From: Candidatus Moraniibacteriota bacterium
GTDB lineage: Bacteria; Patescibacteriota; Minisyncoccia; Moranbacterales; UBA1568
NCBI GenBank assembly: GCA_052034935.1
Contig: JBPOIB010000001.1
Span: 74,746 to 138,745, forward strand
Reading direction: 5' to 3'
DNA length: 64,000 bases
Both the position numbers and the translations under genes were made by a program. Below are positions 6,417 to 43,460 of this stretch, one piece after another. A model generated the notes under the pieces. That model did no database searches and was not told the origin of the DNA. It saw nothing but the letters and a program-made list of their open reading frames with translations. The stretch's first letter is position 1; each line of letters begins with the position of its first letter.

Positions 6417-6420
6417 AGGG

Positions 6421-7647: not shown

Positions 7648-7651
7648 AAGC

Positions 7652-8242: not shown

Positions 8243-8248
8243 AGGTGT

Positions 8249-26496: not shown

Positions 26497-28242
26497 TTAC
26501 TCGGTGATTCGGAAGAGAAGCGCGTCGCTCGTTACCTCAAGCTTTTCCGGCGCAGCATACGGGGCCTTTGCGCTGAGAGCGGAGAAAGAGAAAGAGATGG
26601 TCTGGATAGGGAGGAGTCGATCACCGAAAGCGCCATAATAGCGTCCGAGAGAATCTTCAGCCGCGAGGAGATAGGTGCGGTCGAACTGCGATCGATCGAG
26701 CCGGGCGTAGTCTTCGGGATTGAAGAAATAAACGGCGTTCTTTCCAGAGAGAGAGGAAAGCGGTCCCGCGATGAGCGCGAAGGGATCACCGGATGCGCCA
26801 CGGTCAATCAGAATAAGATCGCGCTCAGTGAAAAGCGCCGCCAGATACTCTGCCTGAGCGAGAAGGCCTCGCTGTTCTCTTGTCTGAATGGCCTGAAGAG
26901 CGGGATAACACTGGAAGGCGAAGAGGATGGTAAAAACAGCGGGAATGACACGGCTTCTCCAGGTATGAGCAGACTGTGCGGCAAGCCCCTCGATGAGGCA
27001 GATAGTCGCGAGGAGAAAGAGTGGAAAGAGTGTGAAGGCGTAGCGTCGGAGGAGCCAGGGATGGTCATCAGAGATATGTCCGTTGATGAGGTAGAGGAAC
27101 GTCGGTGCGGCGATGAGAACGGGTATAAGGAGAGTGAAGCGGCGTTTCATGATGCCGAAGAGGAGCGAGGCGATGCCGAGAATGAAAATAGGGAAGAGGC
27201 CGTAAGAGAAAAGAATCGGACCGAGCGCGGGATCGGAGCTGCTCCCGGCTGCCGCCGTTCCGCTCAGTTCCTGCCAGTACTTGAGCGCCGCTTTGCCGAT
27301 CATGGTGTAGAAGGGCAGGTTCATGAAAAGGTCACGGAGAAAGAGGAGGATGAAGAAAAGCAGTGTCGGGATCACCCAGTGTTTGGGGAGCGCGAAGAGA
27401 TGGGAACGCAGATGAGGTCGCCAGATGAGCAGGAAGAAGGTGATAGCGGCAATGACGAATCCTTCAATCCGTGTCAGGGCGAAGAGAAAGGCTGTAAGAA
27501 TGACGAGCGGGAGAAAGCGAGTATCATTATCACGATCGAGTTTTGTCAGGGCGCCGGCGAGGACGAGATAGAGAAGCAGGGCGAGGTTTTCGGTGAGGGC
27601 GAGCTCGGTAAGCCAGATCGTAATGAATGATGTCGCAAAGAGTCCGGTCCCGTAGAACGCGGAGCGGCGGGACACGAAGAGACAAAGAAGCTCAAAAAAC
27701 GACCAGCCGGAAAGAACGAAGAGAAAAGCGTTTCCGACGAGGAGCCCGTGGATGCCGAACCAGCTGACGAAGAGTGCGAGGTAGCTGGTGTAGCCGAGCG
27801 GAAACTGTGTGATGAGCGCGCCTGATTCCGTATAGGAAAACCCAGGGAAATTGAGCGCTCGTCCGGGTCCGTAGATGTCGAAAAAAACATCCGATGCCGC
27901 GCTTCGGAAAGCGAGCTCATGATTCTCTGCGAGTTCTACGGCAGCGAGACCGATCGAGCCCTGGTCACGGCCGGTGAAGATGCTCGGTTCGGCTCGGAAT
28001 GCGATGATGAATGCAAGGAATGCGAGGCTCGCGAGTAAAAGAAGGCGGCCGTGGTCTTTGGACCGGAAAAGTGCAGTGATGGCTATGCTAGTGGCTCCGA
28101 AAAAGAGGATGAGCGCGAGCGATGCGAAGAGCGGGGAAAACCAACCGAAGAGAGCAAGCGTGAGAGCAAGCATGAGAGCAAGCACAAAACCGGAGAGTGC
28201 GGTCAGCCATGGCGTCCGCAAGAAGGCGGGGAGGAAGTTCAT
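26497..28242 (-). CDS. GT-C superfamily glycosyltransferase (PMT/ArnT-like, ~15 TM)
   Basis: A 581-aa polytopic membrane protein. The first-loop DQGSIGLAAVELAE region and overall topology resemble GT39/GT83 enzymes. Confidence 0.55.
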   Translation of the reverse strand: MNFLPAFLRTPWLTALSGFVLALMLALTLALFGWFSPLFASLALILFFGATSIAITALFRSKDHGRLLLLASLAFLAFIIAFRAEPSIFTGRDQGSIGLAAVELAENHELAFRSAASDVFFDIYGPGRALNFPGFSYTESGALITQFPLGYTSYLALFVSWFGIHGLLVGNAFLFVLSGWSFFELLCLFVSRRSAFYGTGLFATSFITIWLTELALTENLALLLYLVLAGALTKLDRDNDTRFLPLVILTAFLFALTRIEGFVIAAITFFLLIWRPHLRSHLFALPKHWVIPTLLFFILLFLRDLFMNLPFYTMIGKAALKYWQELSGTAAAGSSSDPALGPILFSYGLFPIFILGIASLLFGIMKRRFTLLIPVLIAAPTFLYLINGHISDDHPWLLRRYAFTLFPLFLLATICLIEGLAAQSAHTWRSRVIPAVFTILFAFQCYPALQAIQTREQRGLLAQAEYLAALFTERDLILIDRGASGDPFALIAGPLSSLSGKNAVYFFNPEDYARLDRSQFDRTYLLAAEDSLGRYYGAFGDRLLPIQTISFSFSALSAKAPYAAPEKLEVTSDALLFRITE

Positions 28243-28308
28243 AGTGGCTCTATTATACGCAAAATCAGGTCCGGCTTCAATTTACCAAAGACTCTCAAAG
28301 GCGGTACA

Positions 28309-30786
28309 ATGAAAGAAATACAAAAAGACTGCTCCATGGGCTTTTTTTTCTGGTACTACACGAAAGGGATCGCGGGCATCGCGCATATCGCGCGCGGCTA
28401 TGTTCGCTATGTCTGGCATCGTTTCAATATCGCCGGTCTTTTTCGGACGCTCCTCTCCCCCTGGCATCGCGATGTGAGTTTCCAGACCTGGCGCGGCTTC
28501 CATCCGATCCTTGCGGCGGAAGCGCTCATCAATAACCTCGTGACACGGATACTGGGCGGTGTCATGCGTCTTGCTGTCATCGCTTTCGGTCTGGGCATGA
28601 TGCTTCTCGTTGGTGCGTTGGTACTGGTGCTCTCCGGATTCGCGTTTGTCGCGCCGATCCTTCTCGTCGGAGGTAGCTTCGTGCTTGGTCTCATCCTCGG
28701 AACCGTCTTCGGGATTGCTCTTTTTATCGCCGCGGCGGTCGTTATCTTGGTCGGCGTTCTCGCGTGGCACGAATCGGAACGCAATTCCAAAGACTATACG
28801 CTTGAGCCCGAGCATGCGCCTTGGCGTGACCGGGCGCTTCTCCGACTCGGAATTCCGCCCAAGGAAGTATCGGCCGAAAATATCGCTACGCTTGAGAACC
28901 GGGAAGCATTCCTCACTTCGCGTCGGATCGCGCCCGAGCTTTTCGACCAGGCTTGGGAAGTTGAGCGACAGCGCTATCTCGAAAAAGAGCAGGTAGAACG
29001 CTTCTGGGATTGGGGGCAGCTGAAGAAAGCACCGCGGATTGGTAAGTACTGGTCATATGCTTACACACCGCACCTTGACCATTACGTCATCGATCTCTCC
29101 GAGGGCGATAACTCTAACTATCGCGGTCAGCAGGCGATCGGCCGGGAGAAGACCATCGAGATGCTCGTCCTCACGCTGACTCGCCCGACGGATAACAGCG
29201 CTCTTCTCGTCGGCGATCCCGGTATCGGCAAGCGCACTATCGTGCATGCCCTGGCCGAGCGGATCCGCGAAAACCAGTTTACACACCCTGCGCTCGATGA
29301 AGCGCGCTTCGTCATTTTCGATCTCGGCCAGGTCATCTCGGATGCTCGGAGCCAGGGAACGGACCCGAAGGGTCTCCTCCGTGATCTCCTGAATCAGGTG
29401 GTGTACGCCGGAAATGTCGTCCTCATCATTGAGGGCATCGATATGTTTCTCGATCCGAGCAATGACATGGCGGTCGGGGATGTCCTCAATGACTATCTCT
29501 CTCTCCCGACGTGCCGTATCATCGGGCTGATGACGGGTGAAGCGTATCATACGCTCGGCCAGCGGCAGATTCCCGCGCTCAAGTACTTCGAAACTGTTCA
29601 GGTGCTGGAGCCAACGCGCGAAGACACGATTCGCATCCTGCTCGATACGTTCAAGACGCTTGAGAAAAACCGGCCGGTCTTCACGCTCCAAGCGCTCCAT
29701 GGAATCGTCGAGGGCGCCGAGCGCTACAATTGGGAAATGCCATTTCCGGAGCGGGCGATTGACCTCGCTCAGGAAGTACTCGTCTATTGGGAGAAGCATC
29801 CTGAATTGCCGTTCATCGAGCGAACGATTGTCGAGGACTTCCTTGAGGAAAAATCGGGGATTCCGATGGGAGAGGCGAGCGAGGAAGAGCGCGAGAAACT
29901 TCTCAATCTCGAGTCCCTCCTCCATGAGCGGGTCATCGGTCAGGCGCTCGCCATCAAGCAGATGTCGGAGGCATTCCGGAAAGCACGCTCAGGACTCGGC
30001 AATGACAAGAAGCCGATCGGGTCCTTCCTTTTCCTCGGTCCAACCGGTGTCGGCAAGACGGAGACCGCGAAAGCACTCGCCGCCGTCTATTTCGGTGACG
30101 AGGACCGGATGGTGCGGCTTGATATGAGCGAATTCCAGACACCCCAGTCCATCGATGAGCTCATCGGATCGGCTGAAATGAATGTCCAGGGTCGGATGAC
30201 GACACTCATGAAAGAACACCCGTACTCGATCCTACTCCTTGACGAGCTTGAGAAAGCGTACCCTCGCGCCCTTGACCTTTTCCTTCAGATCCTTGATGAG
30301 GGCTATGTGACGGACGGCTTCGGTCACAAGGTGAATTTCCGGAACGCTATCATCATCGCGACCTCGAATGCGGGTGCTGATATCATCCATGCAGCGACGG
30401 CGGAGGGTCGGTCGATGGTCGATGTTGAGGACGAGCTCATGAGCACGATCATCTCGAAGGGGCTTTTTCGCCCGGAATTCCTCAACCGCTTCGACGGCGT
30501 GATTCTGTTCAATTCGCTTACGGCTGAAGAAATGGAACAGGTCACCGCGCTTAAGCTTCAGGCGTTCGCTGACAAGCTCTACACGGAGAAGAAAATCCAT
30601 CTCTCGTTCACGCCGGAAGCAATCCGTGCGGTTGTAGCGAACGGCTATGAACGCGAGTACGGCGCCCGCTCGATCAATCGCTACATTGCCGATGTCGTGG
30701 AGGATACGATCGTGAAACAGCTTCTCCAGGGTACATTGGTCGAAGGTGCAGAGGTCACCTTCACCGAGGCGGATCTGGCCGAATAG
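28309..30786 (+). CDS. Membrane-anchored Clp/Hsp100-family double AAA+ protein (degenerate D1, canonical D2)
   Basis: The N-terminal ~190 aa carries ~4 TM helices in place of a Clp N-domain. D1 reads IGREKTIEMLVLTLTRPTDNSALLVGDPGIGKRT (Walker A degenerate, K-R-T) with a Walker B-like LIIEGID. D2 is canonical: VIGQALAIKQ…GPTGVGKTETAKALA, LLLDELEKA, sensor ATSNAG. No ClpB M-domain and no IGF/L loop were seen. The start was moved to ATG 28309 (Shine-Dalgarno AAAGG), because the track ORF start overlaps the convergent GT-C gene. Confidence 0.8.
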   Translation: MKEIQKDCSMGFFFWYYTKGIAGIAHIARGYVRYVWHRFNIAGLFRTLLSPWHRDVSFQTWRGFHPILAAEALINNLVTRILGGVMRLAVIAFGLGMMLLVGALVLVLSGFAFVAPILLVGGSFVLGLILGTVFGIALFIAAAVVILVGVLAWHESERNSKDYTLEPEHAPWRDRALLRLGIPPKEVSAENIATLENREAFLTSRRIAPELFDQAWEVERQRYLEKEQVERFWDWGQLKKAPRIGKYWSYAYTPHLDHYVIDLSEGDNSNYRGQQAIGREKTIEMLVLTLTRPTDNSALLVGDPGIGKRTIVHALAERIRENQFTHPALDEARFVIFDLGQVISDARSQGTDPKGLLRDLLNQVVYAGNVVLIIEGIDMFLDPSNDMAVGDVLNDYLSLPTCRIIGLMTGEAYHTLGQRQIPALKYFETVQVLEPTREDTIRILLDTFKTLEKNRPVFTLQALHGIVEGAERYNWEMPFPERAIDLAQEVLVYWEKHPELPFIERTIVEDFLEEKSGIPMGEASEEEREKLLNLESLLHERVIGQALAIKQMSEAFRKARSGLGNDKKPIGSFLFLGPTGVGKTETAKALAAVYFGDEDRMVRLDMSEFQTPQSIDELIGSAEMNVQGRMTTLMKEHPYSILLLDELEKAYPRALDLFLQILDEGYVTDGFGHKVNFRNAIIIATSNAGADIIHAATAEGRSMVDVEDELMSTIISKGLFRPEFLNRFDGVILFNSLTAEEMEQVTALKLQAFADKLYTEKKIHLSFTPEAIRAVVANGYEREYGARSINRYIADVVEDTIVKQLLQGTLVEGAEVTFTEADLAE

Positions 30787-30888: not shown

Positions 30889-32343
30889 ATGCGCACCGAA
30901 GGTTCACATAAGGCACTAGCGTTTGCGGTCGGGACATTCATGCTGTTCGGGGGTTATTTTGCCTACGCCTCCTATCTCTCGGGGATTCCCAGTACCTTGC
31001 CGTTTATTCAGACCATCTCAGCCAAGGATGGTGAGGATGACAGTAACGATGAGGAGGAAGATGACAATGAGGACGAAGAGAAGGAACAAGAGAAGGCTGA
31101 GAAAGAAAAGGAAAAGGCAGCGGAAAAGAAGAAAAAAGAAGATGAGAAAAAACGAGAGGCTGCCAAGAAGGCCGCTGAACGGTCTTACAAATCTTCGAAT
31201 TCTGGTTCAGGAAGCGGTGTGAAGCTTCGCAGCGACGGAACAGTCGACGATGACTCTTTTGAGGATGAGTCGGAAGATGATGACTATGTGAATGGCGTGA
31301 AGGTCCGTGGTGATGGCAGTGTCGATGATGATGCCGAAGAGAACGAGGTCGGGGATGATCGAATGGAACAGCGTTCGGGCAAGGATGAGCGCGAAGCCAT
31401 GTACAAGGACCGGGAGAAGACGCTCGAGCGTGTGAATGAGAAGATTGCTCAGGCCGAAGAGAAGATACTGGAAAAGCAGGCCGAGGGCGTCGATGTGACG
31501 GCAGCCCTGGCCGAGCTCGAGAAGGCAAAGGCAAAAGTTGCCGGTATTGAATCCGCTTTTGCGACCGGAGCGGTTGTGGATATCAAATCCCTCGTGAAAG
31601 AAGTGGAGCGTCTCGCGCATTTCTCTCGTGGCAAAGTACTGAAGGCTTCGGAGGATGTCGCAAAAGATGTCGCGAAGGTCGCGAAGCGCATCGCTCAGAC
31701 CAAAGAGAAGATTGCTTATCTCAAAGCAATGGGCGGCGATGCGACCAGCTATGAATCGAGCCTGTCGGAGGCAGAATCCGCCTTTGCTGACGCGAAGTCG
31801 AAAATCGCCCTCGGAGGCAGCGACCTCCTCGCGGGCCTGACGTCCTTGGAGATTGTTGAGCGGCGGGTGAAGTCGATCAAGAATTCAGTCGAAGGAGCAT
31901 TGCTCGCTCTCGGAGTTTCCGACGAGGATGAGTTCGAGACCGAGCATGATGAGGATGTCGAGGATGCCTCGGATGATCTCGTCGAACTGGCGGAAGCCGA
32001 TGAGGACCATCTCTCGCTCAAGAATCTCGCCAAGACCCATAAGGAAGAGGCAATCAAAGTCTCTGGTCTCGTCTCTCGGCTCGATGACCGCAGCCGAATC
32101 GTCCGTGGCCTTGTTGGAAACGATTCCGATATCCTGAACGAGCTCCAGAACGAAGTAGCTATTAATGAAGCGCGGATAGCGGCGATGCAGACGGCGGTGG
32201 CCGAGATCGAGGATCAGGACCTGTCTGAACTCATAAATGAGAAGATTGGCGATCTCAAATCTGAGAACGCGAAGCTCGCGAACTTCATTAGTTCTCAGTC
32301 TCTCGAAACCGGAGTCTTTGGCTGGTTCTTCAAATTGTTTTAA
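30889..32343 (+). CDS. Membrane-anchored acidic low-complexity / coiled-coil protein
   Basis: An N-terminal TM, then a D/E/K-rich tract (DGEDDSNDEEEDDNEDEEKEQEKAEKEKEK…) encoded by a purine-rich repeat at ~31020-31160. Two VK(L/V)R(S/G)DG(T/S)VDDD repeats follow, then long heptad-like helices, and a C-terminal GVFGWFFKLF. Confidence 0.6.
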   Translation: MRTEGSHKALAFAVGTFMLFGGYFAYASYLSGIPSTLPFIQTISAKDGEDDSNDEEEDDNEDEEKEQEKAEKEKEKAAEKKKKEDEKKREAAKKAAERSYKSSNSGSGSGVKLRSDGTVDDDSFEDESEDDDYVNGVKVRGDGSVDDDAEENEVGDDRMEQRSGKDEREAMYKDREKTLERVNEKIAQAEEKILEKQAEGVDVTAALAELEKAKAKVAGIESAFATGAVVDIKSLVKEVERLAHFSRGKVLKASEDVAKDVAKVAKRIAQTKEKIAYLKAMGGDATSYESSLSEAESAFADAKSKIALGGSDLLAGLTSLEIVERRVKSIKNSVEGALLALGVSDEDEFETEHDEDVEDASDDLVELAEADEDHLSLKNLAKTHKEEAIKVSGLVSRLDDRSRIVRGLVGNDSDILNELQNEVAINEARIAAMQTAVAEIEDQDLSELINEKIGDLKSENAKLANFISSQSLETGVFGWFFKLF

Positions 32344-32371
32344 AAGAAACAATACTAGAGTGGAAATTAGG

Positions 32372-32394
32372 GGCCCGGATTTTCCGGGCTTTTG
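32372..32394 (+). terminator. Rho-independent terminator
   Basis: GCCCGG-attt-CCGGGC followed by TTTT, after the acidic protein gene. Confidence 0.55.
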
Positions 32395-32451
32395 ATTTAT
32401 AGTAAATTGTTTAAATCTGCTAGAATAAAAAAGCACTATTTTTGAAAAAAT

Positions 32452-32913
32452 ATGAAATTTGTTCAGGTTAGCGTCGGAAAAAAACAAAAAATAGTCATCA
32501 GTCTGTTCGTCATAATACTGATAGTAGTTTTTGCTCTGGTGATAAAGAGAGTCTACGTTGATCGTGATTATCTTTTGATAAATGAGGTTGTGTGCGATCC
32601 CGGTACGGAGACGTGTTTCAAGCGGCTGTGTGAAGAATGCGAGGCGGAAGGCGAAGAATATGAGTTTTATAAAAAACAGTTCGTTTCTGCAAAGAATGTT
32701 TCGATGTGTAACCCGAGCCAAGAAGAATGCTCAGAGCTTATATGTGCTGAAACCGAGGGCTGTCAGGAACAATACTGCGACGAGACAAATGTTCCAGAGG
32801 GCGAGGAGTGTTCTAGTGCCGAAGATGCTTCCTCTGAAGACGAACCGTCTGATACCGAGGGAGAGGTAGATGAGGAAGGTGTCGTTGAATCTCCAGAGAA
32901 TGAAGGAGCTTAA
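32452..32913 (+). CDS. Small membrane-anchored Cys-rich, poly-acidic protein
   Basis: A 153-aa protein with an N-terminal TM, then 10 Cys in a D/E-rich ectodomain (CDPGTETCFKRLCEECEAEGEE…CAETEGCQEQYC…), and an acidic tail EGEVDEEGVVESPENEGA. The gene is ~38% GC, far below its surroundings. Its stop codon lies 3 nt before the ATP-grasp start. Confidence 0.55.
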   Translation: MKFVQVSVGKKQKIVISLFVIILIVVFALVIKRVYVDRDYLLINEVVCDPGTETCFKRLCEECEAEGEEYEFYKKQFVSAKNVSMCNPSQEECSELICAETEGCQEQYCDETNVPEGEECSSAEDASSEDEPSDTEGEVDEEGVVESPENEGA

Positions 32914-32916
32914 TCT

Positions 32917-34212
32917 ATGCGCGTACTGTTCATCTCCCGAGAGCTTGGGGCCTCTGAACTTGTGCTCAAATTGAAGGCCGAGGGCTGTGAAGTGAAGCTC
33001 TACATACAGGACGAGGCGGTTTCAGACTGTCTAGAGGGGATGATTTCAAAGGTAGATGACTGGAAATCAGAGCTTCCTTGGGTCGGAAAAGATGGACTTC
33101 TCGTTTTTGATGATATCGGTTTCGGCGATGACCAATCCAGACTGAGGAAAGAAGGCTATCGGGTTGTTGGCGGAAGTGCTGGCGGCGACCAGATTGAAAT
33201 AAATCGACTGGTTGGAAAGCAGGTGCTCGAAGCGAGTAGTATGCTGGTATTACCAGCTCATACCTTTTCTCATCCCTCTGAAGCGAAAAAATTTCTCCTC
33301 GCGCACGCCGATTCTCGGTGGGTAGTAAAGGTGAACAATGGACATGTGAGCTCCCTCTGTTATATTGGGCAGCTTCAGGATCAGAGCGACCTCCTCGGCA
33401 TTCTCGATTTGTATGAGGAACGAGGGATAAAAGATGTCTACCTCCAGCAGCGTGCGGAAGGAGTGGAGGTAGGGGTGGGCCGCTACTTCAATGGCAACGA
33501 CTGGGTTGGTCCGATTGAGATGAATGTAGAGCACAAATCTCTGATGTCTGGGAATGTCGGACCGAAGACCGCAGAGATGGGAACACTCATGTGGTACGAC
33601 GCTGATGAGAGTAATCCGCTTTTCCTCGCGACACTCTCCCGGCTCAAAAAGCATCTGTCGGACATCGATTTTCGAGGAGATGTCGATATAAATTGTATCG
33701 TAAATGGCGATGGCGTCTGGCCTCTTGAGTTTACGGCGCGATTCGGTAATCCTGCGACGGCACTTCAGATTGAGCTGCACGACTCTCCCTGGGGAGAATT
33801 CTTGTCTGCTATTGCTGACGGGAAGCAGTATGATCTCAAATATAAAAAAGGGTTCGGAATAACAGTCACGCTCGCCGTGCCTCCTTACCCATATTGCTTC
33901 GAGCTTGATTCAGCTGAGACGTCCAAGGGTTTGCCGGTGGCATTCACGAGATTCGTCGCCTCGGAAGAACTCGTTCATTACGGTTTCGAAGAGGTTAGCA
34001 CCGACAGTAAAGGTCGGCTATATATCTCCGGAAGCCGGGGGTGTGTCGCTCATATTTCTGGCCACGGAAAGACTATCGAGTTGGCTCGTAAGGGAGCGTA
34101 TGATCGGGTGAAAAACCTGATTGTCCCAAAATCATTCTATCGAACGGATATTGGTCTGGAGTTCATCGAGCATGACTGCGATAGGCTCAAGCAGTGGGGA
34201 TGGTTAAAATAA
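32917..34212 (+). CDS. PurD-family ATP-grasp ligase, divergent (lacks canonical N-terminal GGGGREHA loop)
   Basis: EFTARFGNPATA… and the C-terminal DIGLEFIE align with PurD EFNCRFGDPETQ… / DIGWRAIE. The ATP-grasp core is present (VVKVNNGHVSS…). The N-terminus (RVLFISRELGASELVLKLKAEGCEV) is not PurD-like. Confidence 0.65.
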   Translation: MRVLFISRELGASELVLKLKAEGCEVKLYIQDEAVSDCLEGMISKVDDWKSELPWVGKDGLLVFDDIGFGDDQSRLRKEGYRVVGGSAGGDQIEINRLVGKQVLEASSMLVLPAHTFSHPSEAKKFLLAHADSRWVVKVNNGHVSSLCYIGQLQDQSDLLGILDLYEERGIKDVYLQQRAEGVEVGVGRYFNGNDWVGPIEMNVEHKSLMSGNVGPKTAEMGTLMWYDADESNPLFLATLSRLKKHLSDIDFRGDVDINCIVNGDGVWPLEFTARFGNPATALQIELHDSPWGEFLSAIADGKQYDLKYKKGFGITVTLAVPPYPYCFELDSAETSKGLPVAFTRFVASEELVHYGFEEVSTDSKGRLYISGSRGCVAHISGHGKTIELARKGAYDRVKNLIVPKSFYRTDIGLEFIEHDCDRLKQWGWLK

Positions 34213-34221
34213 AAGGACCCT

Positions 34222-35184
34222 ATGATTGAATATCATCAATGGCTGCTTGTGGCTTTCATCGCGCCGACGCTCTGGGCCATCACGAATATCATTGATGTAT
34301 ATTTTGTCGAGTCGATATACCGTGACGAGTATGATGGAGCGATCATCTCCGGTCTCTTCCAGATTCTTCCGTGGATTTTTGTGCCGATTGGCCTTATTTC
34401 ATTCGCGCTCTCTGAGTATCAGGCAACCCCACTTTTCTTTGCCGGGTTCTTCTATATTACCGCTCTCTTCTTCTTCTTTCGCTGCTTGTTCAGACAAAAC
34501 GACGCTTCCCTCATCCAGATCCTCTGGAATCTGAATGTCCCGCTCACTCTCTTCGCCAGCTGGCTTTTGTGGCAATCGCCGCTCCACCCTGTACAGTACG
34601 TCGGCTGTGCGCTTGTATTTCTGGGAGTTTGCGCGCTGACAATAAAGGGCCAAGTACCGTTCGCTATGATTCGGTCCGTCGCCCTTCCGGTCTCTGGCGC
34701 CATTGTGTTCCTCACACTCAGTATGCTGCTTTCTGGATATGGCTACGATCGTAGCACCGGCAATTTCTTTGGTTCGTACCTTCTCTTTTCACTTGGTTCT
34801 TTCGCTGCCGCCATTGGGCTGACGCTTATCCGAATGCTGTCCCGGAGATCATCACAGGAGGCGCATACTGTTGCTCATCTCGCTAGGCTTTCCTCAAAGT
34901 ACTTCATCGTTTTTTTTCTAGCTGAGCTTTTGGCGCTCTTCGGCACGATTGCTTCTCAGCGGGCACTTGATTTGAGTCCCTCAGTCGGTCTTGTGGCGAC
35001 CATAGAAAGTTTGACCCCGGCGATCATTATTCTCCTCAGTATTATCCTGGCTCTGACCATGAAAGTATTCCGGCCAGACGATGCTCGATGGGGTAAGCTC
35101 CTTCAGGAACAGACATTCGGGATGAAGGCCAAAATCATTTCCACGGTTATTATTGCTGTAGGTATCTACTGTATTGCCCGCTAG
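34222..35184 (+). CDS. 10-TM membrane protein, DMT/EamA-like transporter (putative)
   Basis: Two 5-TM halves typical of the drug/metabolite transporter superfamily. No other motif was seen. Confidence 0.45.
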   Translation: MIEYHQWLLVAFIAPTLWAITNIIDVYFVESIYRDEYDGAIISGLFQILPWIFVPIGLISFALSEYQATPLFFAGFFYITALFFFFRCLFRQNDASLIQILWNLNVPLTLFASWLLWQSPLHPVQYVGCALVFLGVCALTIKGQVPFAMIRSVALPVSGAIVFLTLSMLLSGYGYDRSTGNFFGSYLLFSLGSFAAAIGLTLIRMLSRRSSQEAHTVAHLARLSSKYFIVFFLAELLALFGTIASQRALDLSPSVGLVATIESLTPAIIILLSIILALTMKVFRPDDARWGKLLQEQTFGMKAKIISTVIIAVGIYCIAR

Positions 35185-35211: not shown

Positions 35212-36879
35212 ATGTTCTGCACCGATATCCCATCTCCAATTGCTCTTATTTTTTCGAGCAGCACGCCCACCTTGCTGTACTATTCGCATCTCCCGGTCAT
35301 TTTCACAGCGCTTATTGTGGGGTTGCTTGTCTACTCGAAGAATAAGAGCCTTGAGAGCAGACTTCTCCTGGCCTTGGTTTCACTCTTTTCTCTCTGGAAT
35401 TTTATCGACTTGATAAATTGGACGAACATCGACAGTCGGATAATCATGGTTTCTTGGACATTCATGAATTTTGTCTTCGTCCTCATCCCGGCGGTGGCCC
35501 TGTATTTTTCGTACGTCTTTCTTGAAAAGAAGGAGCCCCCGCTCTTCTTTTTTTTGGCGGGTATCATCCCGTTCTTCCCATTTGCATTTCTTTTACCAAC
35601 GAGTCTAAATCTGATCGGATTTGACCTGTCGATTTGTGAAGCGGTAGACGGTGAATTCAACTTCTACTTCCATCTTCTTCAGGCATTTTATTTCGCCTGG
35701 CTTATAGCCTTTCTGGTTTACCAGTGCATTAAGAACTGGCGGAACAATAGAAAACCAGTCATCCTCTTTTCATCGGGAATAGCCTTCTTTATCTCGAGTT
35801 TCTATGCAGGGAATCTTGTCGCGGATCTTCTGGACACATGGGAATTCGAGCAGTATGGTCTTTTCGGAATGCTTGTCTTTCTCACACTCCTCGTGATTAT
35901 GATTGTCAAATATGAGGCGTTCAATATCAAGATACTTGCGGCCCAGGCGCTCATGGGGGGATTCATCGTCCTGATTGGAGCTGAATATTTCTTTGTCTCT
36001 TCGACGACTGGTCTTGTTTTGACGACGATAACCTTTTTGCTAGCTGTTGTCTTTGCCTATTTCCTCATTCGTTCAGTGCGGCTCGAGATAGCACGCAAAG
36101 AGCAGTTGCAGGATATTGCCAACCGACTCTCCGTAGCTAATGCGGAACTGCATCGGCTCGATACAGCCAAGAGCGAGTTCATCTCAATCGCATCGCATCA
36201 ACTGCGGACGCCGCTGACTGCAATCAAGGGATTTGTTTCTCTTCTTCTCGAAGGAGCGTACGGCAAACTCGAGCCACCGGTTGCTGATACGCTCAACAAA
36301 GTCTACCTTGCCAATGCTCGCCTTATGAATCTGGTTGAGAATCTCCTCAATATTTCGCGAATCGAAGCGGGTCGCATTCAGTATCAGTTTGTGCCGACGC
36401 GGGTCGAAGAGCTCCTCGAGGAGCTTCGGGATATTTTCCAGTTGGCGGCCCACGAAAAAGGCATCACGCTTCAAATAGCTGTTCCGGAAAAGCCGCTTCC
36501 AATTCTCTCTCTCGACAGCGCTAAAATTCGCGAGGTTATCTCGAACGTAATTGACAATGCAATCAAGTACACCGAAACAGGTTCGGTCACCGTTGTTTCG
36601 GAACTCGTAGGGGAGAAAGTGATTATCACTGTTGCTGATACTGGGGTTGGTATCGATCCGGATGATTTACCGCACCTATTCCAAAAATTTGAACGTGGCA
36701 AGAATGCTGCCCAGATCAATGTCTCGAGCACTGGTCTCGGACTCTATGTCGGCAAGAACTTCATCGAGGCGCACGGCGGGACGATTCGGGCCGAGTCGGC
36801 TGGAAAGGGAAAGGGCTCCCGGTTTATCCTGGAGTTCCCGCTTCAGACGCTGAAGCTTGAAAAGAAGGCTCTGGGCTGA
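35212..36879 (+). CDS. Sensor histidine kinase with N-terminal multi-TM (7TM-like) sensor domain
   Basis: ~8 TM helices, then a HisKA H-box (EFISIASHQLRTPLTAIKG) and HATPase_c N/G boxes (NVIDNAIKYT, DTGVGID, GTGLGLYV). Confidence 0.85.
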   Translation: MFCTDIPSPIALIFSSSTPTLLYYSHLPVIFTALIVGLLVYSKNKSLESRLLLALVSLFSLWNFIDLINWTNIDSRIIMVSWTFMNFVFVLIPAVALYFSYVFLEKKEPPLFFFLAGIIPFFPFAFLLPTSLNLIGFDLSICEAVDGEFNFYFHLLQAFYFAWLIAFLVYQCIKNWRNNRKPVILFSSGIAFFISSFYAGNLVADLLDTWEFEQYGLFGMLVFLTLLVIMIVKYEAFNIKILAAQALMGGFIVLIGAEYFFVSSTTGLVLTTITFLLAVVFAYFLIRSVRLEIARKEQLQDIANRLSVANAELHRLDTAKSEFISIASHQLRTPLTAIKGFVSLLLEGAYGKLEPPVADTLNKVYLANARLMNLVENLLNISRIEAGRIQYQFVPTRVEELLEELRDIFQLAAHEKGITLQIAVPEKPLPILSLDSAKIREVISNVIDNAIKYTETGSVTVVSELVGEKVIITVADTGVGIDPDDLPHLFQKFERGKNAAQINVSSTGLGLYVGKNFIEAHGGTIRAESAGKGKGSRFILEFPLQTLKLEKKALG

Positions 36880-36919
36880 TACGCTCTAGACTGGCAGTTT
36901 CGAACTAATAACCATTGCT

Positions 36920-37753
36920 ATGCAAAGAATACTCCTTGTTGAAGATGATCCGTTCATTTCTGAGATTTACACAAAAAAGCTCGGATCATCAGGATTCGAG
37001 GTGATACCGGCGTTGACCGGCCGGGATGCGTTGAAGAAAATACAGGAAACGCCGTTCGACCTCGTCATGCTCGACATGGTTTTGCCGGAGCTCTCCGGTA
37101 TGGAGATTCTGCGCGAACTCCGGACGAATAAGGACTACGATGCGAATCTCAAAGTCGTCGTTTTCAGCAATCTCTCGGGACCTCAGGAGCGTCAGGATGC
37201 GGTTTCCGCTGGTGCGAACGGATTTATCTCAAAGACGGACTTCACCCCATCTGAAGTCGTCGTCGAGGTGAGGCGTTATCTCGAGCAGTTCGCTTCTCAA
37301 GCGAAAAACGCGGACCGAATCATTATCGAACCAAAGAGAGAGGTATCTTCGGTACCGACGGAGGAACAGACATCGAAGCGTATCCTCCTTATCGAAGATG
37401 AACCGGTGTTCATCGAGATGTTCGGCAAGGCATTGACGGACGCGGGATATACCGTTGTGACCGAGCGAAACGGTCAGAACGGGCTGGATCGGGCCAGGAC
37501 AGGAGAATTTGATCTCATCGTAACGGACCACCTCCTTCCGGTGGTGTCCGGCAAGGAGATTATTCAGGCTCTCCGAGGTGATGAAGCGTTCAAGTTTCTC
37601 CCTATCTTTCTTCTGACGGCCTCTCTGGAAGAGGAAGAGGTGAAAGATCTTCAGGCTTCGGGGGCGGTCAATCGTTCCTTCCTGAAGACTCAGGTGACAC
37701 CGAGCGAGCTTGCAGCAACAGTAGATTCATTTTTTTCCGGGCAAGCTTCCTAA
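36920..37753 (+). CDS. Response regulator with two tandem receiver domains and no output domain
   Basis: REC1 (ILLVEDDPF…DLVMLDMVLPELSG) and REC2 (ILLIEDEPVF…DLIVTDHLLPVVSG), each with an acceptor Asp and a conserved Lys. There is no DNA-binding or enzymatic domain. Confidence 0.8.
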   Translation: MQRILLVEDDPFISEIYTKKLGSSGFEVIPALTGRDALKKIQETPFDLVMLDMVLPELSGMEILRELRTNKDYDANLKVVVFSNLSGPQERQDAVSAGANGFISKTDFTPSEVVVEVRRYLEQFASQAKNADRIIIEPKREVSSVPTEEQTSKRILLIEDEPVFIEMFGKALTDAGYTVVTERNGQNGLDRARTGEFDLIVTDHLLPVVSGKEIIQALRGDEAFKFLPIFLLTASLEEEEVKDLQASGAVNRSFLKTQVTPSELAATVDSFFSGQAS

Positions 37754-39168: not shown

Positions 39169-40254
39169 ATGCCTGCATCCTGGACTCTCTTTTTGAAAAA
39201 CCTGTATGGCCGGTTTTTTGGGAATTTGACCCAGGATATCGGAATTGATCTCGGAACGGCGAATACACTGGTCTATGTCCGTGGCCGAGGCATTGTCATT
39301 AATGAGCCATCCGTTGTTGCTATCAATCAGCGGACCGGACAGATTCTTGCAATCGGCCGGGAGGCAAAAAAGATGGTTGGCAAGACGCCGGGTCATATCG
39401 TCGCAATTCGGCCCCTTGTCGATGGTGTCGTTTCGGATTTCGAGATCACTCAGCAGATGCTCCGCTACTTCATCGGCAAGGTGACGGAAGGAAGCTTCAA
39501 GTTTCTCCGTCGCCCTCGCGTGCTTATCGGTATCCCGTCAGGCGTGACGGAAGTAGAAAAGCGCGCCGTGATCGAAGCGGCGATGAATGCCGGTGCTCGT
39601 CAGGCTTTCCTTATCGATGAGCCGATGGCGGCGGCGATTGGCGGCCGGCTACCGGTTATCGATGCGGCCGGTAACATGGTCGTCGATATCGGTGGCGGAA
39701 CGACCGAAATAGCAGTGATCTCTCTCGGCGGCGTCGTCATCGCGCGCAGCCTCCGGATCGCGGGCGATGAAATGAATGAAGACATCATCCGGTATTCTCG
39801 TGATGAGTTCAATCTGCTCGTTGGTGAACGGACAGCCGAAGACGTCAAGATCGCGATCGGTAGTGCCTTTCCTCTGAAAGAGCGTCTCCAGTATTCGATC
39901 CGTGGGCGTGACCTTGTTTCAGGTCTGCCGAAAGAGGTTGTCATCACGGATGAGCATGTCCGCGAGGCACTTTCGCGCTCGATCCGTATTATCGTGAATA
40001 ATATCAAAACACTCATCGAGGAAACTCCACCCGAACTTATTTCCGATATCATGCAGCGTGGCATAGTCATCTCGGGCGGCGGCAGTCTCATCCGCGGCCT
40101 CGACAGGCTTATTGCCAGTCAGACGGGGATTCCAGTGAAACTGGTTGATGATCCGTTAACTGCCGTGGTCCGAGGTACCGGCATCGTGCTCGATGACATG
40201 GACACGCTCAAGGATGTCTTGATCGAGGACGAGCGGGGCGGACCGTTAAAGTAA
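39169..40254 (+). CDS. mreB: Rod shape-determining protein MreB
   Basis: Actin-fold motifs (DIGIDLGTANTLVYV, DIGGGTTEIAVIS, VISGGGSLIRGLD) with a ~20-aa N-terminal extension. Confidence 0.9.
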   Translation: MPASWTLFLKNLYGRFFGNLTQDIGIDLGTANTLVYVRGRGIVINEPSVVAINQRTGQILAIGREAKKMVGKTPGHIVAIRPLVDGVVSDFEITQQMLRYFIGKVTEGSFKFLRRPRVLIGIPSGVTEVEKRAVIEAAMNAGARQAFLIDEPMAAAIGGRLPVIDAAGNMVVDIGGGTTEIAVISLGGVVIARSLRIAGDEMNEDIIRYSRDEFNLLVGERTAEDVKIAIGSAFPLKERLQYSIRGRDLVSGLPKEVVITDEHVREALSRSIRIIVNNIKTLIEETPPELISDIMQRGIVISGGGSLIRGLDRLIASQTGIPVKLVDDPLTAVVRGTGIVLDDMDTLKDVLIEDERGGPLK

Positions 40255-40261
40255 TATATCC

Positions 40262-41083
40262 ATGAGAAGGGAAGAATCTTTTTTCCGCAGAAACAGCGTC
40301 CGGGCGGTGGGAGCGGTGTTTTTTATCTGGGTGATTGCTCTCATTCTTCCGGAGAGCATAACGAAAAGCCTGAAGCATATCATCGCTCCAATCGCGGCTC
40401 CAATCGAGGGTGTTATGGCCTGGACCGCATTCGAAATCCGTGACCTATCATCTTTTCTTTCTTCGATTGGCGACCTGAAGCGTGAGAACGAGCGTCTGGA
40501 AACGGAGCGGTTAGTTCTTTCTCAAAATAACGGCCGTCTCCGTGAGCTTGAGGAAGAAAATCGTTTGCTCCGCGAAGCGCTTCGTCTCCCTCTTGATACG
40601 GAGCTCGCGGCCATACCGGCCGAAGTCATCGGCCGCGATCTGAATGGTGTCTCGATGAGCCTGATACTCAATCGAGGCAGTGTTGATGGTGTCGAGATGG
40701 GGATGGCGGTCGTGGTTGGAACCGGAAACTTAATCGGACGTATCGTCGCGGTGCATCTGACGAGCGCGGAGGTCCGTCTTTTGTCACATGCCGAGAGTAC
40801 GGTCGCAGCCCGGATTGCCGGTTCCTCGATCCAAGGAGTGATTCGTGGCGACCACGGCCTCGGTCTTGTCTTTGATATGGCGCTTTCGGGGGAGGCACTT
40901 GAGCCCGGGGCGCCACTCATCACTTCGGGTCTGGGTGATGCTTTGCCGAAAGGTCTCGTCATCGGAGAAATCCGGGAAGTCCGTCCATCGGCCGACCGGC
41001 TTTTTCAGCAGGCGACGGTGGCCGTACCGGTTGCCTTCAGTGATGTCCGCTACGCTTCCATCATCAAACGCTCTTCACCATGA
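40262..41083 (+). CDS. mreC: Rod shape-determining protein MreC
   Basis: An N-terminal TM, a coiled coil, and a beta-rich C-terminus, immediately downstream of mreB. Confidence 0.8.
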   Translation: MRREESFFRRNSVRAVGAVFFIWVIALILPESITKSLKHIIAPIAAPIEGVMAWTAFEIRDLSSFLSSIGDLKRENERLETERLVLSQNNGRLRELEEENRLLREALRLPLDTELAAIPAEVIGRDLNGVSMSLILNRGSVDGVEMGMAVVVGTGNLIGRIVAVHLTSAEVRLLSHAESTVAARIAGSSIQGVIRGDHGLGLVFDMALSGEALEPGAPLITSGLGDALPKGLVIGEIREVRPSADRLFQQATVAVPVAFSDVRYASIIKRSSP

Positions 41084-41586
41084 GTATTTTCGTCCAACGT
41101 TCGGCGCTTTTTCTTGTCCTTGCTGTCTTCCAGTACTCATTCCTCGATATTCTGTGGCCGTCGTTTCCTGCTCCGGCTGCCATGATTGCTCTCATTGTGT
41201 CGCAGGTTTTTCTGAACGGTTTCGAGAAGGGCGGCCTCTGGTCGCTTTTTGCCGTCGGACTTTTTCTTCTTCTTGGTCAGAGCGATCATATTTTCGTTCT
41301 GTTTGGAGTCCTTATCGCCTACGGGACGGGCTTTCTCTCTCGCCGACTGGTCATCGAGCGTCCGGTCCAGACGAGCTTTCTCCTCGCCTGCACGAGCGCC
41401 GGATTCGCTGCAACGTATATAATTGTGATAGTCTTGTTTTTCCAACATCCGCTGGTAGTGTGGTCACTCTTCGGAAATATTCTTCAGACTCTTTTTGTCT
41501 TCCCGGTCATTTTCTTTATTCTAACAACATGGGAAAGATATGTGAGGGAAAGCGCAATGTCTGAATTCCGCGGGCTGCGGACCTGA
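41080..41586 (+). CDS. mreD: Rod shape-determining protein MreD (polytopic membrane)
   Basis: A 168-aa hydrophobic protein overlapping the mreC stop. Position and size fit MreD. Confidence 0.65.
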   Translation: MSIFVQRSALFLVLAVFQYSFLDILWPSFPAPAAMIALIVSQVFLNGFEKGGLWSLFAVGLFLLLGQSDHIFVLFGVLIAYGTGFLSRRLVIERPVQTSFLLACTSAGFAATYIIVIVLFFQHPLVVWSLFGNILQTLFVFPVIFFILTTWERYVRESAMSEFRGLRT

Positions 41587-41591
41587 AATCT

Positions 41592-43460
41592 ATGTTTTTC
41601 TCTCGTAATACCCGCCGTCAATATGACGCGACAGAAATCGATGATGCTGTTCTGACGCTGTCTCGGCCGGAGGCAGCACGCATCGAATGGGCGCTTCAGA
41701 GGTCGCCGGTCCGATTCTTTTTCTTTGCTGCCTGCTTTGGCCTGCTTCTTCTCGGCGGACGACTCGTCTATCTCAATGTCCTGAAGGGCGGATACTATGG
41801 AGAGATAGCAGCGCGCAATAGTCTTCGATCGATCATCCTGGCTGCTCCGCGCGGCATCATCTTCGACCGTTTTGGTGAACCGCTCGTGAAGAATACGCCC
41901 AGTCTGGATGGTTTGGTGATTCCGGCCTCATTGCCGCAGGACCCCGCGCTTCGTGATCAGGTGCTCTCGCTCGCGGAAAGTATTTTTCAGCCAGAGACCG
42001 GAGCATGGCGCGAAGCGGTCCTCCAGCAGGATTTTCGACCGGGCGAGGCGCTTATTATCCGCCAGGATATTTCTCAGGAACAAGCAATCATCTACTACAG
42101 CCAGGCGAATGCTCTTCCCGGAATTGGGCTTCAGAAATCAGCGCGCCGTGAGTATATCAACGGCCCGATGTTCGCGCACGTGCTCGGATACGAAGGTAAA
42201 ATCAGGAAGGAGGAGCTTGATGAGAATCCGGACTATCTTTTTACTGATTCGATCGGTAAACAGGGAGTAGAGCGTTCGTACGAATCACTGCTCCGCGGAA
42301 CACATGGGCGCGAGATAGTCGAAGTGGATTCGCTCGGAAGAATCCAGAAGGAGCTCGGCATTGTTCCGCCGAAACCGGGTCAGGATATCTCGCTCACTCT
42401 CGACAAGGGTCTTTCAGAAAAGATTTACACGACGCTCGCTGACTGGTTTGTGGCAAATGATCTGAAGGCGGGGGCTGCAATCGCGCTTGATCCGCGCTCA
42501 GGCGCAATCCGGGCACTCATCTCCTATCCGAGCTACGATAATAATCTCTTTTCAGGCGGCATCGAGCAGTCGGCCTACGCGAAGCTTATCACTGACGAGA
42601 AAAGACCGCTCTTCAATCGGGCGATCGGGGGCGAGTATCCGCCTGGGTCGACTATCAAGCCGGTATTGGCTGCCGCCGCGCTCGCCGAGGGAGTGGTAAC
42701 ACCGGAGACAGTCATCGAGAGCCGGGGTGGAATCAGTGTCGGCCAATCATTCTTCGGCGACTGGAAAGCGCATGGCTTCACTGATCTGCGCCGGGCAATC
42801 GCGGTCTCGAGTGATGTCTACTTTTACTCGATTGGCGGCGGTTATGGCGGGATTCGAGGACTTGGTATGGAGCGGATGAAACGTTATGAAGAATACTTCG
42901 GTTATGGGCGGAAAACTGGCATCGATCTGCCGAGCGAAGCGGACGGTCTCTTGCCGGATCCGGAATGGAAGCGTCAGAAAATCGGTGAGCGTTGGTATAT
43001 CGGTGACGACTATAATGCTTCAATCGGGCAGGGATACGTCACCGCAACACCGCTCCAGATCCTGAATTCGATTGCGACAATCGCCAATGGCGGGACACGC
43101 TACACGCCTCATGTCCGAGCGTCATCTGATACGAGCGATCCGGACTTCCCGAAAGAAAGTGTTGCTGTCCCCGCAGATATCCTTCGCGTCGTCCGGGAAG
43201 GGATGCGTGAAACAGTGACCGAAGGGACAGCTCAGTCGCTTCAATCTCTGCCGGTCGCGGTAGCTGGAAAGACGGGGACGGCACAGTACGGTGGTAAAGA
43301 AAATACGCATGGCTGGTTCGTCTCCTTCGCGCCCTATGAGAACCCGGAGCTGGCGCTCATTGTTCTTGTCGAGGGTCAGGAAAAAGACAGTACCTATCAT
43401 GCAGTCCCGATTACGCAGGCGATCTATGAGTGGTACTTCAATCGTGAAAAAAAGCTTTAG
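41592..43460 (+). CDS. mrdA: Penicillin-binding protein 2 (elongasome transpeptidase)
   Basis: A PBP dimerisation domain, then transpeptidase motifs STIKP, SSD(V), and KTGTA. It follows mreD. Confidence 0.85.
   Translation: MFFSRNTRRQYDATEIDDAVLTLSRPEAARIEWALQRSPVRFFFFAACFGLLLLGGRLVYLNVLKGGYYGEIAARNSLRSIILAAPRGIIFDRFGEPLVKNTPSLDGLVIPASLPQDPALRDQVLSLAESIFQPETGAWREAVLQQDFRPGEALIIRQDISQEQAIIYYSQANALPGIGLQKSARREYINGPMFAHVLGYEGKIRKEELDENPDYLFTDSIGKQGVERSYESLLRGTHGREIVEVDSLGRIQKELGIVPPKPGQDISLTLDKGLSEKIYTTLADWFVANDLKAGAAIALDPRSGAIRALISYPSYDNNLFSGGIEQSAYAKLITDEKRPLFNRAIGGEYPPGSTIKPVLAAAALAEGVVTPETVIESRGGISVGQSFFGDWKAHGFTDLRRAIAVSSDVYFYSIGGGYGGIRGLGMERMKRYEEYFGYGRKTGIDLPSEADGLLPDPEWKRQKIGERWYIGDDYNASIGQGYVTATPLQILNSIATIANGGTRYTPHVRASSDTSDPDFPKESVAVPADILRVVREGMRETVTEGTAQSLQSLPVAVAGKTGTAQYGGKENTHGWFVSFAPYENPELALIVLVEGQEKDSTYHAVPITQAIYEWYFNREKKL

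Follow-up and report, generated by a model that had tools for sequence, protein, structure and literature searches.

The DNA considered here is a window of 64,000 nucleotides from Candidatus Moraniibacteriota bacterium (contig JBPOIB010000001.1, positions 74,746 to 138,745), and the genes in question encode a small cysteine-rich membrane protein (CYS) and, directly downstream of it, an ATP-grasp protein (GRASP). These genes open a co-directional array, CYS-GRASP-EamA-HK-RR-AspRS, in which they are followed by genes for an EamA-like permease of the drug/metabolite transporter (DMT) superfamily, a polytopic sensor histidine kinase (HK), a response regulator (RR) and an aspartyl-tRNA synthetase (AspRS), the successive gaps being 3, 9, 27, 40 and 5 nt (Table 1). 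The identical arrangement, including the called 153-aa gene, is found in an independent assembly (locus L093). As the initial annotation of this DNA stated, the stop codon of CYS lies 3 nt before GRASP, and the junction reads GAAGGAG-CT-TAA-TCT-ATG; the short gap and the embedded GAAGGAG are consistent with close translational coupling of the two genes. The same annotation counted positions 32344-32451 as part of the gene interval, but this stretch is non-coding and is made up of a terminator hairpin and an AT-rich leader, with 30.6% guanine plus cytosine (GC) overall ahead of CYS. The terminator is a 17-bp hairpin followed by UUUUGAUUU and folds at -21.7 kcal/mol (z -4.74), a stability that none of 200 shuffled sequences equals. 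Since a terminator precedes CYS and the array is tightly packed, a new transcription unit begins here with CYS as its first cistron. A consensus scan for sigma-70 promoters 5' of CYS gave neither a site nor an enrichment. The possibility that the 108-nt leader contains a riboswitch or some other RNA was rejected, as Rfam recognizes two tRNAs only in the whole window and the structure of the leader is that of the terminator.

Table 1. Features of the CYS-GRASP locus (positions in the window; aa, amino acids; TM, transmembrane segments)
Feature	Position	Strand	Description
Upstream 484-aa gene	30889-32343	+	hydrophobic N-terminus; no Pfam model
Intrinsic-terminator hairpin with U-tract	32364-32398	+	ends the upstream 484-aa gene; sequence GGGGCCCGGAUUUUCCGGGCUUUUGAUUU
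AT-rich leader	32399-32451	+	presumed promoter region, inferred
CYS	32452-32913	+	153 aa, single-pass membrane protein with 10 Cys
Shine-Dalgarno-like GAAGGAG	32902-32908	+	within the CYS 3' end, 8 nt before the GRASP ATG
GRASP	32917-34212	+	431 aa, soluble ATP-grasp protein, PurD fold
EamA-like (DMT superfamily) polytopic permease	34222-35184	+	320 aa, 9-10 TM
Polytopic sensor histidine kinase (HK)	35212-36879	+	555 aa; HisKA + HATPase_c
Response regulator (RR)	36920-37753	+	two receiver domains, no recognizable output domain

The three proteins encoded after GRASP were compared with domain models and by hydropathy. The EamA-like protein scores 22.5 bits against the Pfam EamA model, under its gathering score of 28.2, has nine transmembrane segments by hydropathy, and its clustered orthologs carry precomputed EamA matches. 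In the HK, HisKA (60.8 bits) and HATPase_c (92.9 bits) are joined to eight or nine hydropathy-predicted transmembrane segments connected by loops of at most 22 aa, so that the protein has no ectodomain. The RR matches Response_reg with 129.9 bits over two stretches. Region 35212-37753 thus encodes a two-component system, with a HisKA/HATPase_c kinase and a receiver-domain regulator.

GRASP has the fold of PurD, the phosphoribosylamine (PRA)-glycine ligase that makes glycinamide ribonucleotide (GAR; EC 6.3.4.13). An AlphaFold (AF2) model built from 30 homologs (predicted local distance difference test (pLDDT) 94, predicted TM-score (pTM) 0.92) matched 15 PurD chains over the full length in Foldseek, with E values of 1e-24 to 1e-27, TM-scores of 0.72-0.80 and 17-21% identity, and the biotin carboxylases that came next were ten orders of magnitude weaker (E 1e-17). 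The four-domain N-B-A-C architecture of PurD (TIGR00877; PDB 2yw2, 1gso, 2qk4) is kept, the whole length of GRASP aligns with E. coli PurD in hhalign (probability 99.6, 20% identity, 392 columns), and all its sequence matches in the PDB are PurD proteins, at E 1e-15 or weaker. These comparisons, which the initial annotation had proposed as a way to find the acceptor-binding family, therefore yielded a full-length PurD fold with a remodelled substrate loop. That annotation had aligned GRASP with PurD across the B, A and C domains and noted the absence of the GGGGREHA loop; it was right about the loop, which reads SRELGASE, but the N domain is present and modelled with a pLDDT of 94. Its description of the protein as divergent is also borne out, GRASP being a non-PurD member of the PurD fold: it reaches 84.2 bits against the PurD equivalog model TIGR00877, for which the cut-off is 288, scores below the Pfam thresholds of GARS_A (22.6, threshold 27) and GARS_C (31.2, threshold 34.8), and has no match to GARS_N. 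No transmembrane or signal segment is present in GRASP.

The substrate sites are where GRASP departs from PurD, as judged from a profile alignment to the E. coli enzyme with residue roles taken from the human and Aquifex enzymes (PMC2978367, PMC8880213). In PurD, the Arg and Glu of the G-x-G-G-R-E-H-A loop have been proposed to hold the phosphate and ribose of PRA (PMC2978367), and both are lost in GRASP, where GNGGREHA is replaced by SRELGASE. DHKR has become EHKS, GPNTGGMG has become GP(K/L)TxEMGT in the family, and the B-loop GLAAGK is represented in the family by NGxHxSS. At the site that reads EFNCRFGDPE in PurD, GRASP has EFTARFGNPA, so that the Arg is kept, the glycine-binding Asp and Glu are lost, and the Mg-ligand Asn is an invariant Thr. 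GRASP is thus without two of the four glycine ligands of PurD (the D295/E297 equivalents), and the lost Asp is a residue that in PurD also binds the amine of PRA. Likewise, the PROSITE pattern PS00184, R-[LF]-G-D-P-E-x-[EQIM] (as worded in PMC3261824), is absent from GRASP, which reads RFGNPATA; across the family its Asp position is occupied by N/T/C/S/V/W and its Glu position by A/S/T. Because the PRA loop and two glycine ligands are lost, GRASP would make something other than GAR.

On the catalytic side, 30 diverse members all have K138, E205, K207, E271 and R275, H206 is nearly invariant, and many further columns are fixed; the residues that align with the ATP-binding Lys, the H-K dyad, the Mg-binding Glu and the acyl-phosphate-stabilizing Arg (R275 in RFG) of PurD are all kept. 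As these ATP-grasp catalytic residues are retained, ligation of a carboxylate to an amine through an acyl phosphate is the likely chemistry of GRASP. Measured against ATP-grasp enzymes in general, the fold is there, the E-x-N motif has the invariant Thr in place of its Asn, and another sequence stands where the Gly-rich B-loop would be. Read from its residues, GRASP is a non-PurD ligase on a PurD scaffold, with altered substrates and under strong purifying selection, and its conservation together with the confident model indicate that it is probably an active enzyme.

The GRASP family comprises 1514 database matches, of which the best 120 share 48-100% identity along their entire length. It is conserved across Patescibacteria at 45-69% identity, and all named organisms among these best 120 belong to Patescibacteria, their proteins being labelled 'hypothetical' or 'GARS C domain-containing'. 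The cultivated Minisyncoccus archaeiphilus, the genome of which is without nucleotide biosynthesis (PMC12281837), has an ortholog (L050). In line with the initial annotation, which reported no purine-pathway gene nearby, none was found in the whole 64-kb window, and no pur gene is among the recurrent neighbours of GRASP at the 81 loci described below. The family therefore differs from PurD in lacking a pur context and in being present in organisms without purine synthesis. A comparable case has been made for the 'extra' PurD-like paralogues of haloarchaea, Hlac_1553 and rrnAC0307, which were judged not to be GAR synthetases by the same argument, namely that their N-terminal loop diverges and the Asp of R[LF]GDPE is lost (PMC3261824). 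These paralogues belong to another lineage than GRASP, and the likeness noted is one of loop and motif. As far as its sequence and surroundings tell, GRASP is a PurD-fold ATP-grasp ligase with a new specificity in a new context.

CYS, the other gene of the pair, defines a protein family of its own. As initially described, it has a transmembrane anchor, ten cysteines and an acidic tail: a basic N-terminal stub precedes a single hydrophobic helix (aa 10-37), followed by a juxtamembrane R-D-Y motif, a beta-rich domain (aa 41-120) containing exactly ten Cys (C48, 55, 60, 63, 86, 93, 98, 104, 109 and 120) and a disordered acidic tail (aa 121-153). In the AlphaFold (AF2) model, most of the domain reaches a pLDDT of 83-92; aa 81-100 have 71-76, and the values of the tail stay under 50. 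CYS is matched by none of the Pfam or NCBIfam models, and Foldseek found no fold relative in the PDB (best E 3.7). A single-sequence search returned four relatives, and the wider family emerged from clustering the open reading frames (ORFs) at 80 GRASP loci; a profile scan of 1.84 billion representative proteins then gave 848 members at E <= 1e-3, 518 of them at E <= 1e-10. Among the best 150 of these 848, each protein matches in a single stretch, with no obvious domain fusion, and only a few exceed about 230 aa, up to 258 and 318 aa.

The ten Cys do not vary among 34 trimmed homologs, and P50, F56 and Y73 are nearly invariant. In 147 representatives the number of Cys is exactly ten in 110 and even in 135, and in the CYS protein of L044 the third and fourth Cys are both missing; the even numbers and this paired loss are as expected from disulfide pairs. 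The helix is flanked in 52 of 52 homologs by a basic stub and a following stretch of 15 residues that is acidic overall (net charge +2.3 versus -2.2), which by the positive-inside rule predicts an N-in/C-out topology. The net charge of the ectodomain is about -0.25 per residue. Conservation does not extend to the tail, which has a median length of 22 aa after the last Cys, is at most 10 aa long in 40 of the 147 representatives (27%), and ends in these in L (30), E (28), I (27), K (12) or other residues. Tail-less CYS proteins occur in L050 (Minisyncoccus), L073, L031, L044, L035 and L062, all of which keep GRASP, and several tail-less members adjoin GRASP orthologs of ordinary conservation. 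CYS evolves much faster than GRASP: in a comparison presumably involving the same 10,261-bp contig, CYS is 53-59% identical and GRASP 86%.

The base composition of the CYS gene is less unusual than first thought. The initial annotation gave 38% GC, but the whole gene has 43.9% (41.6% at third codon positions, GC3), and values of about 38% arise only in 300-nt windows that take in both the intergenic leader and the initial 150 nt of CYS, which encode the transmembrane helix and have 36% GC; the GRASP gene has 50.2% and neighbouring genes 48-56%. Recent horizontal acquisition of CYS, which low GC might suggest, was ruled out, since across 47 loci the difference in GC between CYS and GRASP averages only +0.5% and the dip is that of the leader and the transmembrane-coding part. 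The GC3 of CYS, compared with 53-60% in adjacent genes, is only partly explained by the transmembrane-coding segment and is not a family-wide trend. The exact CYS protein of the window is absent from a collection of 15 billion proteins, in which an identical GRASP is present.

Gene neighbourhoods were compared at 80 species-representative GRASP loci plus the window (81 loci), with ORFs called and clustered by script. Gene calling at these loci was a crude longest-ORF procedure, making start sites and some gaps approximate; neighbours were counted within about 6 kb of GRASP, and absence within 5-8 kb is not genome-wide absence. The recurrent neighbours are a polytopic HK (55/81 loci), an EamA-like permease (51/81), CYS (48/81 by clustering and 53/81 with a hidden Markov model, HMM), an RR (24/81), AspRS (19/81), a protein of the S-adenosylmethionine decarboxylase (AdoMetDC) family (18/81) and a 228-aa membrane protein, M228 (15/81). 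At the 49 loci that are fully flanked, i.e., with 5 kb or more of sequence to either side, EamA or M228 is present in 39, HK in 36, the decarboxylase in 14 and CYS in 30 by clustering or 33 with the HMM, leaving 16 without CYS. The EamA-like permease is the most consistent partner of GRASP; it is also the gene most often found directly 5' of it (19 loci, followed by CYS in 16 and the decarboxylase in 13).

The initial annotation had asked whether GRASP homologs always follow a small Cys-rich ORF. CYS is indeed a frequent neighbour, but it lies directly 5' of GRASP in 16 loci only, and the 16 fully flanked loci without it show that the association is not obligatory. Several of the gaps in those 16 CYS-GRASP pairs are at most 8 nt or are overlaps; gaps of -4 to +9 nt separate the decarboxylase from GRASP elsewhere, with a 4-nt overlap in Minisyncoccus. 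Such tight coupling is therefore not special to CYS. Gene order varies across lineages: CYS-GRASP-EamA-HK, CYS-EamA-GRASP-HK, decarboxylase-GRASP-EamA-CYS-HK and GRASP-CYS-HK are all observed.

The decarboxylase encoded 5' of GRASP is a protein of about 135 aa that matches Pfam PF02675 (AdoMet_dc) with 93 bits and has retained the ES/H/C residues of processing and catalysis. Homologs of this family from the Candidate Phyla Radiation (CPR) include proven ornithine decarboxylases, one of them from Kaiserbacteria (PMC10407285). In the decarboxylases of L023, L035 and L062, the presence of F/T/Y/Q at positions differing from Thermotoga maritima SpeD is at most suggestive of the ornithine decarboxylase (SpeDC) subtype. 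Published clusters of the AdoMetDC family pair it with SpeE, HSS, SpeY or CASDH/CASDC (PMC10407285), whereas here the partner is GRASP; that study makes no mention of a PurD-like ligase as a partner, and 'ATP-grasp' does not occur in it. Genes related to S-adenosylmethionine (SAM) or amines are also scattered around GRASP (L013-L080; clusters c9, c10, c12, c16, c25 and c30), among them SET-domain, PrmA/PRMT-like, GNAT, radical-SAM and arginase-family (agmatinase-like) proteins, and one further such family looks GAMT/Rmt2-like by eye and has no Pfam match. In the window itself, tblastn found no homolog of AdoMetDC, deoxyhypusine synthase (DS), SET, GNAT, agmatinase, radical-SAM or M228 proteins.

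The two ends of this gene set can be found apart from each other. Five proteobacterial loci carry GRASP and EamA, and three of them also the AdoMetDC-like decarboxylase; no CYS or HK was found at these loci on the available sequence, which in L056 ends 198 nt upstream of EamA. The label proteobacterial was reserved for loci in which it agreed with record size, GC content or a flanking gene, as some titles are evidently mis-binned (e.g., patescibacterial-type loci titled 'Bdellovibrionales'). The order is decarboxylase-GRASP-EamA in the 62%-GC Rhodocyclales contigs L060 and L068, decarboxylase-SET-GRASP-x-EamA in L046 and EamA-GRASP in L056. In L015 (positions 6001-8307; OZ244972.1), GRASP (41% GC) and EamA (38% GC) form an island between flanks of 55-60% GC in a 6.04-Mb Rhodospirillales chromosome, which looks like either a recent transfer from a patescibacterium to an alphaproteobacterium or an assembly chimera. 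Among the fetched loci, the closest GRASP relatives of the proteobacterial copies are mostly patescibacterial. A single-receiver gene with 44% GC lies near the L015 island on the opposite strand.

Conversely, CYS was examined in seven distinct arrangements centred on it. Each of the seven has HK 3' of CYS, and in three of them the two genes overlap by 4 nt. GRASP is found within 8 kb in only two; the other five keep HK. In several of these loci another protein occupies the position of GRASP, namely a deoxyhypusine-synthase-like protein in L081/L082 (L081:8001-13385), a stand-alone LPG_synthase_C, the synthase domain of MprF, in L089 (5548-10332) and L091 (5540-10063), and a family of 264-283 aa without Pfam match (c39) in L086 and L090, and the loci are otherwise equivalent, with an AdoMetDC-like protein, EamA or a membrane protein, CYS and HK. 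On the 5' side of CYS, homologs of the 484-aa protein of the window, which contains a long Asp/Glu/Lys low-complexity stretch and coiled-coil-like repeats, occur in eight loci, mostly titled Moraniibacteriota.

The reading that we favour, with a probability of about 55%, is that the array is one of several arrangements of a Patescibacteria-wide module with two separable arms, one for enzyme action and transport and one for sensing, and that CYS is a neighbour of the ligase and not its substrate. GRASP would be a cytoplasmic ATP-dependent carboxylate-amine ligase acting together with the EamA-type permease and, in many lineages, also with the AdoMetDC-family pyruvoyl decarboxylase encoded directly 5' of it. 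Since such a decarboxylase yields an amine and a PurD-type enzyme joins a carboxylate to an amine, a small amine (e.g., a polyamine-type decarboxylation product) is the most economical guess for the acceptor, and we infer that the permease moves either the substrate or the product of GRASP. This arm exists as a GRASP-EamA(-decarboxylase) unit in proteobacterial DNA and also where CYS is absent. In the other arm, CYS would be inserted N-in/C-out, exposing its 10-Cys domain, probably with five disulfides, and its variable acidic tail outside the cell, and would serve as an accessory protein or co-sensor of the polytopic HK and its RR. As this kinase has no ectodomain of its own, the outward-facing domain of CYS is a plausible co-sensor, and CYS and HK persist together where GRASP is replaced or absent.

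Parallels to such an organization exist in known systems. LiaF-LiaS and BceAB-BceS include ectodomain-less kinases that rely on accessory membrane proteins, as proposed here for CYS and HK, and MprF under the control of GraSR/ApsSR combines an amino-group-adding enzyme, a polytopic membrane protein and an ectodomain-less kinase, as does the module. EamA is not homologous to the MprF flippase, nor CYS to LiaF or GraX, and the analogy is purely organizational. A literature search gave no description of the GRASP ligase family, the 10-Cys family or the module in Patescibacteria; the patescibacterial operons of the Lipocone paper were considered and proved unrelated to the module.

Several points weigh against the two-arm reading. 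The evidence is computational throughout, the substrates of GRASP are only proposed, and the topology and disulfides of CYS are predictions. The invariant change from Asn to Thr in the E-x-N motif casts some doubt on the catalytic details of GRASP. The link to amines is borrowed from other lineages, there being no AdoMetDC-like gene in the window. Among 50 clustered CYS copies, the direct neighbour is GRASP in 21, EamA in 20 and HK in 11. Finally, the linkage lies largely inside a wider syntenic block (dnaK-dnaJ ... trpS, aspS, mreB), and co-localization may therefore in part reflect inherited gene order and not shared function.

A more far-reaching version of the two-arm reading, to which we would give little credence as a whole, is that ligase, decarboxylase and EamA constitute an undescribed pathway, widespread in Patescibacteria and exported to Proteobacteria. 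The decarboxylase would supply an amine or diamine such as putrescine or agmatine, to which GRASP would join an amino acid or small carboxylate, and the resulting amide-linked polyamine analogue would be moved by the permease. In some relatives the equivalent step might be performed by the aminoacyl-tRNA-dependent LPG_synthase_C or by the deoxyhypusine-synthase-like enzyme, and HK would monitor the pathway through the disulfide-rich acidic ectodomain of CYS as an external sensor.

Among the alternatives, modification of envelope charge comes closest, although we consider it unlikely. Here GRASP would, at the cytoplasmic face, aminoacylate or amidate a membrane lipid or lipid-linked wall precursor and the EamA-like protein would flip the product, forming a split analogue of MprF, and CYS/HK/RR would detect cationic stress like GraS/ApsS, the acidic ectodomain binding cations. 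This would suit the membrane-embedded HK, the negative charge of the CYS ectodomain, the mreBCD-PBP2 and glycosyltransferase clusters nearby, and the LPG_synthase_C that takes the place of GRASP in L089 and L091 beside AdoMetDC-like, EamA, CYS and HK genes. However, that replacement could equally be an unrelated insertion at a variable spot, and the same slot is also filled by the deoxyhypusine-synthase-like protein and c39, so that amine metabolism fits at least equally well. Moreover, no lipid-synthesis gene is consistently linked, and EamA proteins are known mainly as carriers of small solutes.

It is rather improbable that CYS, GRASP, EamA, HK and AspRS have no functional link and are merely a syntenic block of a streamlined genome with unrelated roles. 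Gene order is generally well conserved in such small genomes, and housekeeping genes (aspS, trpS, mreB, dnaJ) do travel with the block. However, the order is repeatedly shuffled while the set stays together, CYS and HK overlap by 4 nt at some loci, as do decarboxylase and GRASP, and GRASP-EamA, with the decarboxylase in three loci, occurs as a unit in proteobacterial DNA. This reshuffling and the proteobacterial co-occurrence argue against plain inherited synteny for GRASP-EamA.

ATP-grasp enzymes include protein and peptide ligases, and the initial annotation had proposed that CYS and GRASP are a dedicated ligase-substrate pair in which the acidic tail is modified. In its broader form, in which GRASP adds an amino acid or cross-link to the tail or another residue, possibly before membrane insertion, this proposal draws on the 3-nt gap with its embedded ribosome-binding site, on the 16 loci in which CYS is directly 5' of GRASP, several with overlaps or gaps of at most 8 nt, and on the 53 of 81 loci where CYS is no further than about 6 kb from GRASP. 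We now regard it as very unlikely. A pair of this kind requires a conserved acceptor, a shared compartment, co-inheritance and an enzyme of the protein-ligase type, and it is poorly supported, because the tail is at most 10 aa in 27% of members and absent in six GRASP-bearing loci, the C-terminal residue is not conserved, the predicted topology puts the conserved domain outside the cell while GRASP has no transmembrane segment, and the genes are separable: GRASP occurs without CYS in 16/49 loci and in the proteobacterial loci, and CYS without GRASP in 5/7 arrangements. The fold of GRASP is, in addition, that of PurD and not that of RimK or MdnC. The close coupling to a substrate-like acidic Cys-rich ORF is thus not evidence of a ligase-substrate pair here.

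Comparison with established pairs leads to the same view. RimK-S6 and LysX-LysW resemble CYS-GRASP in having an ATP-grasp gene next to one that encodes a small, acidic protein with Cys residues. Their substrates are soluble and cytoplasmic with a conserved Glu-containing end and their ligases are RimK-type, whereas CYS has a membrane anchor and a predicted outward orientation, its tail and C-terminus vary and the ligase is PurD-type; no conserved acidic acceptor was found, and the two proteins are predicted to lie in different compartments. Graspetides of the microviridin type combine an MdnB/MdnC-type ATP-grasp enzyme with a short precursor having a conserved core of Thr/Ser and Asp/Glu/Lys that form lactone or lactam rings, but GRASP folds like PurD and next like biotin carboxylase, and CYS has no conserved T/S-D/E core.

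That GRASP is a divergent genuine PurD serving purine synthesis or salvage is extremely improbable: although PurD is its best match in sequence and fold and some source annotations name its homologs phosphoribosylamine-glycine ligase, it falls far below the TIGR00877 cut-off, lacks PS00184, the GGGREHA loop and two of four glycine ligands, has no pur gene in the 64-kb window and an ortholog in Minisyncoccus, which is without nucleotide biosynthesis (PMC12281837), and pur genes never appear among its conserved neighbours, which comprise a permease, a kinase and a decarboxylase.

Patescibacteria represent a very large and mostly uncultivated bacterial diversity with small genomes, in which many conserved genes are without known function. 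Defined here are a PurD-fold ligase that is about 50% identical phylum-wide in organisms not making purines, the partners that recur beside it (a DMT permease, joined in many lineages by a pyruvoyl decarboxylase) and a new 10-Cys family, predicted to be outward-facing, that is tied to a membrane-embedded kinase. If GRASP does use amines derived from the decarboxylase, it would represent a new branch of polyamine-type metabolism, which would also explain the presence of the unit in Proteobacteria.

The surroundings of the array in the window offer some further observations. Directly after AspRS lie mreB, mreC, a 168-aa mreD-like ORF and a gene for a PBP2-type transpeptidase (39169-43460, +), and the module therefore abuts cell-elongation genes; mreB-like genes are found close to it at other loci, too. 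Upstream of the 484-aa gene, a ClpB-like AAA+ protein (28051-30786, +; AAA_2, ClpB_D2-small) is unusual in its N-terminal region, where it has two hydrophobic segments. The GTG start of its longest ORF overlaps by about 190 nt a convergent ORF for a 581-aa membrane protein (26497-28242, -), and the true start is therefore probably further downstream. The only other protein with an ATP-grasp domain among the scanned ORFs resembles ADP-forming acyl-CoA synthetases (61577-63745, -; CoA_binding, Succ_CoA_lig and ATP-grasp_5 domains) and is unrelated to the CYS-GRASP finding, as are the two tRNA genes of the window (45670-45743 and 47154-47226, both +).

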